Shown here in pieces: positions 38,631 through 51,928 of a DNA stretch of 64,000 nucleotides. The stretch is from an uncultured Flavobacteriaceae bacterium (GTDB lineage: Bacteria; Bacteroidota; Bacteroidia; Flavobacteriales; Flavobacteriaceae). The notes beneath the pieces are model-generated. The model saw nothing but the letters and a program-made list of their open reading frames with translations. It ran no database searches and had not been told where the DNA came from. The DNA is taken from assembly GCA_943846735.1 (NCBI GenBank), contig OX044364.1, positions 2,361,271-2,425,270 on the forward strand, written 5' to 3'. The translations under genes and the position numbers were made by a program. Each line of letters opens with the position of its first letter. The first letter of the stretch is position 1.

Positions 38631-38703
38631 CGCGGGATAGAGCAGTAGGTAGCTCGTCGGGCTCATAACCCGAAGGTCACTGGTTCGAGTCCAGTTCCCG
38701 CTA
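38631..38703 (+). tRNA. initiator tRNA-Met (CAT anticodon)
   Basis: CGCGGGATAGAGCAGTAGGTAGCTCGTCGGGCTCATAACCCGAAGGTCACTGGTTCGAGTCCAGTTCCCGCTA. Cloverleaf with a C1:U72 mismatch and the three G-C pairs GGG/CCC closing the CUCAUAA anticodon loop, both initiator hallmarks. Close to E. coli tRNA-fMet. No encoded CCA. Confidence 0.9.
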
Positions 38704-38746
38704 CTAAAACAATAAAACGGTTATACTATTATAGTGTAACCGTTTT
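38704..38746 (+). terminator. bidirectional intrinsic terminator (repeat copy F, adjacent to tRNA)
   Basis: AAAACGGTTATAC-TATTATA-GTGTAACCGTTTTT forms a 13-bp stem with T-runs on both strands. The stop codon of the convergent HxlR gene sits in the loop. Confidence 0.7.
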
Positions 38747-39148
38747 TGATTTATATCTTTCAATTATTGCCAGGTGTAATTCATTTTTATCTTTAACATT
38801 TGCTATGTCTTGATTATCGACAGGTTTAATATTGTGATGGCTCCACAAGGCCAACTCTATTATAACCGGAGTTAACGAAAGTCCTTTTTCAGTTAGAAAA
38901 TAGTGATTAGTTTTTTGGTTGTCAGGCAATTTTTGTTTGACTATAAATCCTATTTTTTCAAGTGTTTTTAACCTATTAGATAAAATACTTGGTGCAATTG
39001 ATTCATCGCTTTCGGAGAACTCTTTAAATGTTTTTTTTTGTTCTAATAGCATCAATTTTATAACAACAAGCGTCCATTTGTCTCCAACAATATCTAATGC
39101 TGAAGTTACAGGACAATTACACCTAAAAAACGTATCTAAAATTGACAT
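38729..39148 (-). CDS. HxlR-family transcriptional regulator
   Basis: ..CPVTSALDIVGDKWTLVVIKLM..KTFKEF....IAPSILSNRLKTLEKIGFI.. Divergent from an SDR gene. Confidence 0.75.
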   Translation of the reverse strand: MSILDTFFRCNCPVTSALDIVGDKWTLVVIKLMLLEQKKTFKEFSESDESIAPSILSNRLKTLEKIGFIVKQKLPDNQKTNHYFLTEKGLSLTPVIIELALWSHHNIKPVDNQDIANVKDKNELHLAIIERYKSKTVTL

Positions 39149-39168
39149 AATTATAAAAATATAATTTT

Positions 39169-39197
39169 TACTATCAAAACAATAGTAATTTTACTAT
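39169..39197. promoter_or_regulatory. candidate HxlR operator (TACTAT-N7-ATAGTA plus a third TACTAT)
   Basis: Perfect 6-bp inverted repeat at 39169-39187 and a further TACTAT at 39192-39197, in the 90-bp divergent intergenic region. Confidence 0.35.
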
Positions 39198-39238
39198 TTT
39201 TGCTATCGAATCAAAAGTAATAATAAATAATCAATCAT

Positions 39239-40255
39239 ATGAATAAAAAAGTATTGTTAACAGGAATATCTGGTTATATTGGTTTGCATTGCGCCAAAAT
39301 TCTTCTAGAAAAAGGATACACCGTTGTCGGAACAGTTAGAAGTACAAATAAAGAAGAGGAGGTTATTAAGACTCTTAATTCAAATTCTGTTTCTATTGAG
39401 AACCTTTCTTTTGTACATTTAAACCTTAGTTCTGATAAAGGATGGGATTCTGCGCTATCTAATTGTAATTATGTTATGCACGTCGCTTCTCCTTTTACTG
39501 TAGAAAACCCTAAAAATGATTCAGACATGCTTGGTCCTGCAGTAGATGGAACCGTTAGGGTACTCAAAGCTGCTAAAAAAAATGGTGTGAAACGAGTTGT
39601 TTTAACCAGCTCCACGGTCGCTATGATGGGAGGTAAAAAAACTGGCACAATTACACCAGATGACTGGAGTGACTTAAATTCAAAAAACATAAGTACGTAT
39701 TTCAAAAGTAAAACATTGGCAGAGAAAGCTGCATGGGACTTTATTAATAATCAATCAGGTGATCAATCATTAGAATTAGTCACGATTAACCCAGGAGGAG
39801 TTTTTGGACCTCCACTTGGTAATAACCTTTCTGGAGCTTCAATGTCCATGATGGTCAAATTTTTAGGAGGAAAAATTCCAATGGTCCCAAATGCATCCTT
39901 TCCAATGGTCGATGTACGTGATGTTGCCTATTTACATGTAGCCGCCCTTACAGAGCCAAAAGCAGCCAACCAACGTTTTATTGCAACAGAAAAAATAGGT
40001 AGAAGTTTTCAATCAATATGCCAATTGCTTACAGACAATGGCTATAAAGGCCCTAGTACCAAATTAGCGCCAAATTTCATGTTAAAATTTTTGTCCATCT
40101 TTGACAGAGAGGCCAAAGGTATGTTGGCTATGCTCGATATGAATCTAAGTGCTGATAATTCTAAAACAATGGAAGTTTTCAATTGGAAACCTATTCCTTT
40201 TGAAAAAACACTTTTAGAAACAGCAGTAGCAGTTACAAAGATTACTTCACATTAA
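39239..40255 (+). CDS. NAD(P)-dependent SDR (aldehyde/cinnamoyl-type reductase or epimerase family)
   Basis: ..VLLTGISGYIGLHCAKILLEKGYTV.., ..HVASP.., ..YFKSK (YxxxK). Confidence 0.7.
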   Translation: MNKKVLLTGISGYIGLHCAKILLEKGYTVVGTVRSTNKEEEVIKTLNSNSVSIENLSFVHLNLSSDKGWDSALSNCNYVMHVASPFTVENPKNDSDMLGPAVDGTVRVLKAAKKNGVKRVVLTSSTVAMMGGKKTGTITPDDWSDLNSKNISTYFKSKTLAEKAAWDFINNQSGDQSLELVTINPGGVFGPPLGNNLSGASMSMMVKFLGGKIPMVPNASFPMVDVRDVAYLHVAALTEPKAANQRFIATEKIGRSFQSICQLLTDNGYKGPSTKLAPNFMLKFLSIFDREAKGMLAMLDMNLSADNSKTMEVFNWKPIPFEKTLLETAVAVTKITSH

Positions 40256-40325
40256 TTATTGAACGGATTTAAATCATTAATCAAGATCACTTTACAACAT
40301 AAAATTGATTGATTTAATTGTATTT

Positions 40326-40424
40326 AATAGATCTCTTGAGGTAAAGATAATGTTCGATATTTCCAATGAGTTATCTACTAAAACAATAAAACGGTTATAC
40401 TTTTATAAAGTGTAACCGTTTTTA
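40326..40424 (+). repeat. tRNA-flank-derived repeat, copy C (5' arm + terminator hairpin)
   Basis: ..TAATAGATCTCTTGAGGTAAAGATAATGTTCGATATTTCCAATGAGTTATCTACTAAAACAATAAAACGGTTATACTTTTATAAAGTGTAACCGTTTTT. Confidence 0.8.
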
Positions 40425-50330: not shown

Positions 50331-50463
50331 CAATTTACTCAGATATTGTTAAAAATCAACATTCTATTTAAATGTTAAAAAATTCAGTCGTACTTTAAAA
50401 TTTAATTAACGGTGTGGGAAAGCAAAATCACATTAGTTATACTCTCATAATGTAGCCGTTTTT
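50331..50463 (+). repeat. repeat element 2 copy 2 fused to a deletion derivative of the tRNA-flank repeat (copy G)
   Basis: CAATTTACTCAGATATTGTTAAAAATCAACATTCTATTTAAATGTTAAAAAATTCAGTCGTACTTTAAAATTTAATTAACGGTGTGGGAAAGCAAAATCACATTAGTTATACTCTCATAATGTAGCCGTTTTT. The junction CATAAT|GTAGCCG suggests loss of the 5' arm by deletion at ATAA microhomology. Confidence 0.75.
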
Positions 50464-50514
50464 ATTTGTAATGAGCAGAGTAGATGACGTTTTCTAAATG
50501 CAAAACTTTAGTTA

Positions 50515-50733
50515 TTACTTTCTTTTTTTTAACCATAAAAGAAACTTTCTGAATAAAGGAACTAAAGGAACTATTGTAAGTATAACAGCAAATATTCCAA
50601 CGGCCTGTATAGGTATCCCAGTAAATCCCTCGATTTCCTCTGCTTCACTTGCTATTATCAAACCAACAATTGTAAAGATTAGAGGGTTTTGTTTTAACTG
50701 TTCAACGAACGTTAAATGTGGTTTATTTGCCAT
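50515..50733 (-). CDS. small two-TM membrane protein (72 aa)
   Basis: MANKPHLTFVEQLKQNPLIFTIVGLIIASEAEEIEGFTGIPIQAVGIFAVILTIVPLVPLFRKFLLWLKKRK has two hydrophobic helices and a basic tail. It is preferred over the overlapping plus-strand ORF. Confidence 0.45.
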   Translation of the reverse strand: MANKPHLTFVEQLKQNPLIFTIVGLIIASEAEEIEGFTGIPIQAVGIFAVILTIVPLVPLFRKFLLWLKKRK

Positions 50734-50805
50734 TTTAATTTATTTTTTTAATGAATATACCAAACCTAAACCATGTTTCATATTATACAGACTAAAATCT
50801 GAATA

Positions 50806-50884
50806 ATAAGATTCATTAAATTATTAAGTGTTGATTAAGTCTCTTGGAGTAAAACTCATGCTCGATATTTCGAAAGAGTTATCT
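50806..50884 (+). repeat. tRNA-flank-derived repeat, copy D (5' arm only, no terminator)
   Basis: ATAAGATTCATTAAATTATTAAGTGTTGATTAAGTCTCTTGGAGTAAAACTCATGCTCGATATTTCGAAAGAGTTATCT. Confidence 0.7.
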
Positions 50885-51080
50885 CATGCCCACGGCGAAT
50901 TTGTATTTTTACTGGTCCGTTATTTATTTTTACCGTCTCAACGTATTGTAAATGAATGAATGAATTGAAATATAGGATGAGGTCTTGATATTTGATTTGT
51001 GTTTGGATAATTTTATACAATTTTATATTATTGCATTTTACAATGTATTAAAACTCCAACAACCAGCTAATTATTTAACT

Positions 51081-51767
51081 ATGAAAACTTATTTAAAACT
51101 ATTCCCATTATTATTCTTATTTCTTGTTGCTTGTAATTCAAGTGATGACTCATACAGCGGCATCGCTTGGGATGAAGAGGTTGATGGCGAACTCTCAGGT
51201 GATTTGTTAAGCCCTTCATTTGTGTCTTTACAAGTTGGAGATAATAGAATTATTGGTAGTTCTACACCAGCTGAAGGTGCTATGTGTACCACCTTCGAAG
51301 GAGGGCCTCCAGTACCAATTATCCCTTATTTTCCAAATCATGAGTCATATGTTGATGTTTTTTCTTTTAATCTTTCCGAGAACGAACGTTTAGTTTCGAT
51401 TACCGTAGAGAGTCTTGATGTGAGTCCTTTTCATAATTTCGAAGATTTCCCATGTATTGGAAGTTTTGAAGAACAAAATGGAGCTTTTGTAGCGATTAAT
51501 AACAGTGATAAAATTGATTGGAATTCTGATAATGTTATTAATTTTATTTCATTACCAGTGACCTACCCACTTATTGGGATAGGCTTTGCTAAATCTGTTA
51601 ATGAAAATATATTGAACAGTTTTCGTCAAGATTTCCCACTGCCAGGTTACGAAGGGGTAAATAATGAAAACCTTGATATTAGCAATGGAACGTATACATT
51701 CTGGTGGAAAGAAGGAGCTAACAATGCAGACTATACCTTAAATTTCGTTGTTGAAAAAATTAATTAG
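51081..51767 (+). CDS. hypothetical lipoprotein (228 aa)
   Basis: MKTYLKLFPLLFLFLVACNSSDD lipobox at the internal ATG 51081. The upstream part of the 50985 ORF is not coding-like. Confidence 0.55.
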   Translation: MKTYLKLFPLLFLFLVACNSSDDSYSGIAWDEEVDGELSGDLLSPSFVSLQVGDNRIIGSSTPAEGAMCTTFEGGPPVPIIPYFPNHESYVDVFSFNLSENERLVSITVESLDVSPFHNFEDFPCIGSFEEQNGAFVAINNSDKIDWNSDNVINFISLPVTYPLIGIGFAKSVNENILNSFRQDFPLPGYEGVNNENLDISNGTYTFWWKEGANNADYTLNFVVEKIN

Positions 51768-51865
51768 TTTATATTTTTGTAAGTCAGAGAACTTTTTGAT
51801 TTTGAATATTTAACTCAGGTTTTGATTGATACTAAACCAGTACGATTAGCCCCTTGTGAAATAAA

Positions 51866-51928
51866 TCCAGTTCCCCATATTAAAACAATTAAACGGTTAT
51901 ACTTTTGTAAAGTGTAACCGTTTTTTTT
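51866..51928 (+). repeat. direct repeat of the tRNA 3' end plus terminator, copy E (candidate distal att-like boundary)
   Basis: TCCAGTTCCCCATATTAAAACAATTAAACGGTTATACTTTTGTAAAGTGTAACCGTTTTTTTT, compared with the tRNA end/flank TCCAGTTCCCGCTACTAAAACAATAAAACGGTTATACTATTATAGTGTAACCGTTTTT. Confidence 0.75.

Follow-up and report, generated by a model that had tools for sequence, protein, structure and literature searches.

Probable remnants of large-serine-recombinase elements arrayed in tandem beside the initiator tRNA gene of an uncultured Flavobacteriaceae bacterium

We analysed a window of 64 kb from an uncultured Flavobacteriaceae bacterium (assembly GCA_943846735.1, contig OX044364.1, positions 2,361,271 to 2,425,270), in which a first-pass annotation had singled out the ~13 kb downstream of a tRNA-Met gene (38631-51928 of the window) as a mosaic of small gene modules separated by copies of one repeat. 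This region is very probably a series of decayed integrative elements in tandem, belonging to one family, which use a large serine recombinase (LSR) to insert directly 3' of the initiator tRNA gene. The most conspicuous part of the repeat, here called the arm, is, from sequence comparison, the orphan last ~30 codons of an LSR gene that reads across the junction, and lies on the element side of that junction, because intact and near-intact LSR genes end either in the arm or in antisense tRNA.

The sole tRNA of the window is a tRNA-Met(CAT) on the plus strand at 38631-38704 (66 bits; ARAGORN and Rfam), and the Rfam alignment displays its initiator-type features, namely a GGG/CCC anticodon stem and a mismatched 1:72 pair. 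Its 3' end would form the host-side half of the recombination site, with the junction CTAC at 38701-38704. Six of the seven copies of the repeat initially reported were recovered, all on the plus strand: F (38704-38746), C (40326-40424), A (41596-41721), B (48365-48487), D (50806-50884) and E (51866-51928). The seventh, G (50436-50463), is a degenerate hairpin only. The linker and hairpin (CTAAAACAATAAAACGGTTATAC) gave five matches and the arm motif (ATGTTCGATATTTCGAATGAGTTATCT) four (C, A, B and D), each for a chance expectation of 0, with 0 matches in the rest of the 64 kb; the copies are indeed, as had been claimed, in the same orientation at the tRNA and absent elsewhere in the window. What had been merged into one repeat consists of two parts about the fixed junction CTAC. 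To the left lies either the tRNA 3' end (copies F and E) or an arm of ~80-110 nt (C, A, B and D), and to the right a hairpin, then a run of T. The repeat units have 75-125 nt in common, at 71-97% identity.

The conserved arm, first regarded as a part of the tRNA-end repeat, is instead a coding sequence on the opposite strand, with the features expected of an LSR tail. In every copy its reverse complement reads (hydrophobic)-V-D-N-S-x-E-I-S-N-I-S-F-T-P-R/K-D-F/L..., followed by ~15 variable residues and a stop, so that the open reading frame (ORF) extends for 27-37 codons after the junction; 128 distinct peptides were found. Of 137 distinct copies, 129 have this frame open over 26 codons or more, whereas the other two frames are interrupted by stops in 136 and 137 of them. 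The ratio of nonsynonymous to synonymous polymorphism (pN/pS) is 0.38 in the coding frame, versus 0.79 and 1.40 in the others, and the entropy at the three codon positions is 0.93, 0.69 and 1.40. A block of 28 nt is nearly invariant, and the core block is exact in 158 of 185 extra copies obtained by a profile search. Searches of 5.8 billion and 1.84 billion proteins with the arm profile returned exclusively ORFs of at most 149 amino acids (aa), the longer of which continue upstream, in frame, as ...FPEGFxFxxKNKxyRTSxlNxiFxLxxSF...KKxKTQxQKVLESxLV, the final V standing at the junction; this is the C-terminal region of a recombinase. Given that neither arm-profile search returned a long protein with an arm end, we rejected a remnant of a host target gene and a silent C-terminal cassette of the shufflon type as origins of the arm. 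In one match, P0130, the arm is joined in frame not to an LSR tail but to a tyrosine-integrase region of SAM-like, core-binding type (Phage_int_SAM_5, 27.5 bits); this is probably a deletion product.

A profile of the recombinase C-terminal region recovered 257 fragments, some of them named "site-specific DNA recombinase" by the Joint Genome Institute (JGI). Past the V of the junction they end in the arm or in AGTGLEPVTFGL and a stop, the latter being precisely what the tRNA of the window encodes, in antisense, at its 3' end; others end in the antisense of other tRNAs. The recombinase co-occurring with the repeat, which the first-pass annotation had proposed to seek elsewhere, is an LSR found in relatives and ending in the arm or in tRNA-fMet. 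In locus L128 a 545-codon ORF with Resolvase and Recombinase domains and the catalytic-serine motif YTRVSSKEQ ends 39 nt inside the antisense of tRNA-fMet. This gene (6783-8420) is divided by a single in-frame TAA (...KTEI*DLQ..., the asterisk being the stop) into called genes of 397 and 139 aa, and the same element holds an IS3-type transposase pair (HTH_Tnp_1 and rve) at 840-2062. Full-length homologues of the LSR number 259 at E <= 1e-20, in Flavobacteriaceae, and the tails of the 120 listed were read: 47 end exactly in AGTGLEPVTFGL and a few in close variants, most of the others end in antisense tRNA-type tails that map to tRNA-Leu genes, and three end in the arm-like HITSEISNNLQEELE.... 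The listed homologues carry the precomputed domain PF00239, and most of them PF07508 too. Cultured bacteria with an intact LSR include Winogradskyella sp. HB-48 and MH6, Yeosuana marina, Psychroserpens mesophilus and Psychroflexus torquis ATCC 700755. Sister LSR lineages of the same architecture occupy tRNA-Leu (P0397, P0398 and P0408; L175, L179-L184, L203 and L207), with tails reading PGVGIEPT... or PGAGVEPARFPTGV, and the HITSEISNNLQEELE... of the three full-length proteins is their own arm-like tail.

Scanning metagenomes added ~45 intact LSR genes that end in tRNA-fMet, and intact genes of 562-568 aa that end in the arm at L144, L145 and L155; at L170 the LSR lineage of L144 bears the tRNA tail instead of the arm. 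The reading frame is therefore continuous in both states. The L144 ORF matches Resolvase at 52 bits and Recombinase at 26.6 bits (cut-off 21.1), with Zn_ribbon_recom at 20.4 bits, below its cut-off of 25.3. Both domains that characterise large serine recombinases, the resolvase catalytic domain and the Recombinase domain, are hence present in relatives, not in the window. The genes adjoining the LSR form a conserved core and encode proteins of 61-70 aa, 118-147 aa (rich in Cys) and ~305 aa (with a weak MerR-like match), and in some loci one of 55 aa. At L164 and L166 (7838-11643), a minimal LSR element of ~3.7 kb lies between two complete tRNA-fMet genes with the same promoter region, the distal copy decaying in L166. 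One cassette of L130 lies between an LSR remnant and an arm, and in L155 an intact LSR element is distal to a recombinase-less cassette whose SDR and HxlR genes are homologous to those of the first cassette of the window. Two tandem tRNA-fMet genes 27 nt apart were also seen upstream of the LSR in L189 (11594-11768).

In the window itself no intact recombinase was found; what is left of one amounts to four arms and, at 50885-51000 in the minus orientation, the remnant of a 3'-end pseudogene. This remnant is contiguous with arm D, contains three in-frame stops and is matched by the protein P0164 (tblastn, E = 5e-13); together with arm D it translates as ...PIFQFIHSFTIR*DGKNK*RTSKNTNSPWA*DNSFEISS.... 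A Pfam scan of ten ORFs between 38.7 and 51.8 kb revealed no integrase domain, no recombinase is among the top 20 gene clusters of 117 arm loci, and the long minus-strand ORFs inside the arrays, considered as recombinase candidates, proved to be proteins of the type IX secretion system (T9SS). The initial statement that the region has no recombinase holds for intact genes, but the repeats themselves are recombinase ends and an LSR remnant is present. As arms and a pseudogene are there and an intact LSR is not, we regard the modules of the window as recombinase-less derivatives of LSR elements, placed in tandem.

The array is not a peculiarity of this genome. A scan for the arm motif, with one genome per species, gave at least 119 stretches, nearly all from marine Bacteroidota, and many of them with 2-4 copies on one strand, 0.5-2 kb apart. 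Among the matches listed, the arms are on a single strand in 118 of 119 loci; in the 38 loci that also hold a tRNA-Met, 61 of 61 arms are downstream of it and on its strand; the only other tRNA in arm loci is tRNA-Asn, twice; and each of six complete or near-complete chromosomes has one 8-kb stretch with arms. In the one locus with arms on both strands, L109, a stretch of 3.6 kb contains two minus-strand arms and one plus-strand arm. As the arms are one-stranded and downstream of tRNA-Met, they are a general feature of the initiator-tRNA locus in the phylum rather than an oddity of one genome or a dispersed repetitive extragenic palindromic (REP) element; a REP-like element had been expected to betray itself by occurring at unrelated loci in both orientations. 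Contigs assigned by binning to Pseudomonadales, Acidimicrobiia and Neomarinimicrobiota metagenome-assembled genomes also carry arms (L050, L057 and L077, the last with a tRNA-Met as well); these are probably mis-binned Bacteroidota contigs, transfer being the alternative. Two contigs labelled "archaeon" (L044 and L083) were excluded, their matches being chance occurrences of the motif inside an AAA ATPase gene.

Cassettes behave as discrete units. Complete junction-to-junction cassettes (n = 55) measure 450-3734 nt, with a median of 980 nt, and many of them recur at full length and 84-99.6% identity in other species, following the tRNA or another arm. The second cassette of the window (HxlR and YceI) is, at 98% identity over its full length, the first cassette after the tRNA in L119, and further pairs are L054/L022, L080/L115 and L033/L071. 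Contigs from the same or related samples (L004 and L005) match the window at 99.9% identity as far as a junction, past which they are unrelated to it: L004 departs from the window immediately after arm A, and L005 has a different, 240-aa cassette after copy C. The sample that yielded L004 also yielded L003, a contig matching the window at 99.9%. The alignments therefore bear out the prediction that presence and absence would fall exactly at the borders of repeats, and the order of modules is not invariant among relatives, as it might have been, since L004 and L005 break at junctions and cassettes take varying positions between species. Stepwise accretion of mini-cassettes at the initiator tRNA, as first suggested, is supported, such units being common to species at different positions of the array. 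The arrays appear to travel with the tRNA rather than with its neighbours, because the flank here consists of polysaccharide genes, while in many other species the tRNA-fMet array adjoins era and der. The ORFs directly upstream are capsule-type genes according to the annotation of the near-identical contig L001, and 27055-38567 is a plus-strand run of polysaccharide type, with glycosyltransferases, Poly_export and a 781-aa AAA_31 protein of the chain-length/tyrosine-kinase type.

Nearly every arm is followed, ~5-12 nt further on, by a plus-strand intrinsic terminator, for which ~50 different sequences were found; the hairpin of the window, h1, is the commonest (82 of 153). In intact LSR genes, the DNA that encodes the tail (KKxKTQxQKVLESxLV) carries an intrinsic terminator on its antisense strand. 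The terminator of L145 is the antisense of LSR tail coding sequence, and translation of many non-h1 sequences likewise gives KK...V tails, equal in length; h1 has the layout of LSR tails but stops in its loop. The hairpin had been interpreted as a bidirectional terminator closing each module. To judge by these sequences, it is instead probably a plus-strand terminator at the start of a cassette, a vestige of the LSR 3' tail together with the inner half of the element site, and the architecture of h1 suggests the same descent for it.

We propose that an autonomous element would carry its LSR gene at one extremity, reading outward across a site at or beside CTAC. In an element integrated beside the tRNA, the ORF would end 12 codons into the antisense tRNA (AGTGLEPVTFGL and a stop); with the element ends joined, in a circle or in tandem, it would end ~30 codons into the arm of the other extremity (DNSxEISNISFTPRDF... 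and a stop). The arm would then be at once the element-side half of the attachment site and the C-terminal tail of the recombinase. It would probably derive from an element-borne copy of the tRNA-fMet gene, a descent suggested by the two-tRNA arrangement of L164 and L166 and by the weak similarity of arm A to the tRNA. Insertion would leave the tRNA intact, the terminator of the element replacing that of the tRNA. Loss of the recombinase and core genes would yield a minimal cassette, consisting of a terminator or tail vestige, cargo and an arm, which keeps both site halves. New elements would enter at the tRNA-proximal junction, so that cassettes pile up, and cassettes could be lost or exchanged through an LSR acting in trans or through homologous recombination between the 75-125-nt repeats. 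Four site combinations were observed, all switching at CTAC (tRNA/terminator, tRNA/LSR tail, arm/terminator and arm/LSR tail); no circle, empty site or crossover dinucleotide was determined. The sequences show the anatomy, the continuity of the ORF in both states, the cassettes common to several species and the breaks at junctions between strains; a circular intermediate, an exact crossover and present-day mobilisation in trans we infer. The distance from GTTCGA to the end of CTAC is 22 nt in the tRNA and 27 nt in the arm, and such a 5-bp shift of an outer motif is that described for attB versus attP half-sites by Rutherford et al. 2013 (PMC3783163).

Several points weigh against this proposal. 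A complete autonomous element with both ends was not recovered, no arm was found within 8-10 kb of the intact tRNA-tailed LSRs (including L128, L131 and L132), and a circular form was not observed. The left halves at L164 and L166 are both the same tRNA, which weakens the argument from the 5-bp attB/attP spacing. The similarity of the arms to the whole tRNA is weak, with z = 2.7 for arm A and no significance for most other subtypes, and h1 shares its architecture with LSR tails, with no significant alignment to them. Most arms cannot be translated in place, because the h1 hairpin that precedes them has in-frame stops; their coding signature must therefore be inherited from, or maintained in, copies linked to an LSR. 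Lastly, canonical LSRs recombine only attP with attB and not hybrid sites, according to the same paper (PMC3783163), so that tandem stacking, or insertion beside an occupied site, requires relaxed specificity. One might speculate further that these loci constitute an active, integron-like platform for gene capture in marine Bacteroidota, run by a serine recombinase on the initiator tRNA, in which mini-cassettes are excised and re-inserted in trans and the switch of tails (12 aa of antisense tRNA versus the arm of ~30 aa) controls the direction or activity of the enzyme. This we advance tentatively, as possible but rather doubtful.

It is also conceivable, if unlikely, that LSR elements built the array long ago and that RecA-type homologous recombination between the repeats, for instance after uptake of foreign DNA, is all that shuffles, adds and removes cassettes at present. 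The 75-125 nt that repeats share at 71-97% identity are enough for such exchange, and breakpoints inside shared repeats would be indistinguishable from breakpoints at the junction. The lack of an intact LSR in the window, the untranslatable context of most arms and the reported inactivity of canonical LSRs on hybrid sites (PMC3783163) are all in line with it. Homologous recombination accounts less readily for one arm block being joined to ~50 unrelated terminators at a single nucleotide position, or for exact junction-to-junction cassettes moving between species of different genera. Moreover, the exact conservation of the core block in 158 of 185 extra copies suggests continued selection on a putative binding site.

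A classic tRNA island of a tyrosine integrase, with repeats that are att-type duplications of the tRNA 3' end left by successive integrations, is highly improbable as an explanation of the whole, although it fits copy E. This copy (51866-51928, plus strand) contains TCCAGTTCCC. It is made up of a displaced 3' fragment of tRNA-fMet (TCCAGTTCCCC), the linker and the h1 hairpin, in that order, the fragment being of the kind that a tyrosine-integrase element would leave; to that extent the initial reading of copy E as a repeat of the tRNA end is upheld. The final 12-17 nt of the tRNA recur in copy E and in a second fragment, found in L004. In L004 (12440-12650), arm A is followed by a different terminator (GAAACTCCTTGAGAAATCAAGGAGTTT) and, ~130 nt past it, by this second tRNA-fMet 3' fragment (AATCCAGTTCCCGCTAC) with a third terminator. 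In L132 and L133, a tRNA-fMet 3' fragment comparable to copy E separates an LSR that reads into it from a tyrosine integrase gene (11737-12972 and 4576-5766, respectively; Arm-DNA-bind_5, Phage_int_SAM_5 and Phage_integrase), and no complete tRNA-Met was detected at these two loci. As the tyrosine integrase lies directly beyond a tRNA fragment entered by an LSR, the two types of recombinase seem to compete for tRNA-fMet. The Phage_int_SAM_5 fragment fused to one arm (P0130) also speaks for a tyrosine integrase. However, arms A-D read as LSR tails and not as duplicates of the tRNA 3' end, which refutes the duplication for them, the junctions point to exchange without duplication of tRNA sequence, and the region has no tyrosine integrase, so that copy E is all that such an island would explain.

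We give equally little credence to the arm being an independent small protein, a plus-strand small RNA or a 3'-untranslated-region element of each cassette, unrelated to recombination. The coding-type constraint would suit a small protein, one copy (in L016) has an ATG directly ahead of the V codon, and, as would be expected of an RNA gene, a plus-strand terminator always follows closely on the arm. But the arm has no conserved start codon; upstream of the junction a stop usually closes the frame within the hairpin, at a distance of 8-9 codons; and intact recombinase genes have this ORF as their end. Apart from the tRNA, Rfam matched nothing, the arm included, and there is no common fold across 41 arm subtypes, the folds differing between copies; on these grounds a structured RNA and a tRNA pseudogene were rejected. 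A generic terminator element dispersed in the genome, similar to REP or to miniature inverted-repeat transposable elements and clustered here by accident, can practically be dismissed, for although the hairpin is a good intrinsic terminator and the genome-wide counts are incomplete (the arm scan lists at least 119 stretches), the copies of the window are confined to one strand of 38.7-51.9 kb, the listed chromosomes and loci show single stretches, one-stranded and downstream of tRNA-Met, and the arm is coding and continuous with a recombinase ORF. A phage or plasmid origin was rejected as well: the arm motif has 0 matches in IMG/VR, the arm with its hairpin has none in PLSDB, and the LSR has a single phage relative, an integrase of only 24% identity. 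No convincing match to a dif-like core of XerC/D or an attC-like core of integrons was seen by eye, and no recombinase supported either.

Read as LSR-element derivatives, the modules of the window can be delimited as follows, and their gene content as established with Pfam agrees with the first-pass annotation. Cassette 1 (38705-40378) begins with the linker and h1 hairpin of copy F (38705-38746, plus strand), an intrinsic terminator, and contains an HxlR gene (38729-39148, minus) and an SDR/epimerase gene (39239-40255, plus); it ends in arm C (40295-40378, minus), an orphan LSR tail ORF (VDNSLEISNIIFTSRDLLNTIKSINFML). The h1 hairpin after arm C (40379-40424, plus) is the left end of cassette 2 (40379-41675), with HxlR (40422-40730, minus) and YceI (40818-41429, plus) genes, which ends in arm A (41562-41675, minus), also an orphan tail ORF (VDNSFEISNISLTPKDLIDTHHIMTLISRNINRESFIY), whose plus strand resembles a decayed tRNA-fMet. 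From the next h1 hairpin (41676-41721, plus), cassette 3 (41676-48445) extends to arm B and consists of three minus-strand genes with T9SS sorting domains, at 41935-44184, 44197-45114 and 45116-48001, the last an alpha-amylase. The adjacent 749-aa and 305-aa proteins with T9SS tails have a paralogous N-terminal region in common, and a 176-nt direct repeat (81% identity) occurs at 43714-43889 and 44650-44825. Arm B (48366-48445, minus) is degenerate, with its ORF cut after 17 codons and a CTGC junction. The h1 hairpin that follows (48446-48490, plus) opens cassette 4 (48446-50884), which has genes for proteins of 179 aa (minus), 153 aa (plus) and 87 aa (plus), includes hairpin G (50436-50463) and ends in arm D (50806-50884, minus), whose junction codon is mutated to a stop. 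An 84-nt repeat (48257-48340 and 50344-50427, 86% identity) precedes both arm B and hairpin G. G therefore looks like a former junction whose arm was deleted, in which case cassette 4 would be two fused cassettes.

In its organisation, the system seems closest to the staphylococcal cassette chromosome (SCC, including SCCmec), and its general kind may in this sense be called known and SCC-like. The Ccr large serine recombinases of SCC insert elements at the 3' end of one housekeeping gene, rlmH, and show relaxed site pairing; repeated insertion gives tandem composite arrays, many members of which lack a recombinase and keep the boundary repeats. Here too we find an LSR at the 3' end of one conserved gene, tandem arrays, members without recombinase (five cassettes and no intact LSR in the window) and unrelated accessory cargo. 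The likeness is one of organisation alone, not of kinship with Ccr. The target is the initiator tRNA gene instead of rlmH, the recombinase ORF crosses the site and would change its C-terminal tail between states, the boundary repeat is an orphan recombinase tail, the cassettes are much smaller (0.45-6.8 kb), and the hosts are marine Bacteroidota.

Attachment sites within recombinase genes are known from SSV1 of Sulfolobus and from IntP/IntX of the Myxococcus phage Mx8, in which the integrase gene contains attP and integration splits or re-tails it; orphan integrase fragments beside tRNA genes then mark past integrations and trapped elements. The present system resembles these in that integration would re-tail the recombinase gene and orphan fragments beside a tRNA would mark past events. 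It differs in that theirs are tyrosine recombinases, in that only the last ~30 codons are exchanged here, and in that the orphan pieces are retained within putatively mobile mini-cassettes. With the phage-type serine integrases (phiC31, Bxb1 and the A118/LI integrase) the LSR shares the combination of Resolvase, Recombinase and zinc ribbon, the motif YTRVSSKEQ, an exchange that would take place at a short core with no target duplication, and a GTTCGA whose distance to the junction is 5 bp shorter in the host site than in the arm (compare attB and attP in PMC3783163). In contrast to them, it is accompanied by no phage genes (and is 24% identical to one phage integrase), it targets a tRNA 3' end, its gene spans attP, and its tandem arrays imply pairing laxer than attP with attB.

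Tycheposons of Prochlorococcus are likewise cargo-carrying marine integrative elements at tRNA genes, with tandem repeat junctions and variable islands. However, a tyrosine recombinase is present in 910 of 937 of them (Hackl et al., bioRxiv 10.1101/2020.12.28.424599). Partial tRNA repeats mark their islands, they belong to another phylum, and a recombinase-tail arm has not been described for them. Integrons offer the parallel of an ordered array of small cassettes beside a fixed site, with one recombination element each and cassettes at varying positions. Unlike those of integrons, the present cassettes are of mixed orientation and bring regulators and terminators of their own; none of the ten ORFs scanned encodes an IntI tyrosine recombinase, and the arm is coding and not a folded attC, with no consistent hairpin in the 41 subtypes. 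An integron was therefore rejected, and the original view that the region is no integron stands; nor is the repeat a REP-like element, the copies in the window being confined to one strand of 38.7-51.9 kb.

In the literature searched we found no description of such arrays, the one related remark being that the tRNA-Met of Psychroflexus torquis is "disrupted by an integrase" (PMC3914696), and similar arrays across marine Bacteroidota seem to be undescribed. Serine-recombinase elements of this kind would explain a variable hot spot beside an essential gene in abundant heterotrophs of the ocean, such as Polaribacter, Winogradskyella, uncultured Flavobacteriaceae, Cryomorphaceae and Saprospiraceae, where the arrays carry regulators, stress proteins, secreted glycoside hydrolases and sulfatases. 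They would add to the knowledge of serine recombinases a tRNA 3' end as target, a gene that lies across its own attachment site and takes on one tail or another, and a population of minimal, non-autonomous cassettes in which both site halves are retained. The 28-nt block of the arm provides a simple marker with which to find the arrays in metagenomes, and the short, defined sites are candidates for new landing pads of serine integrases.

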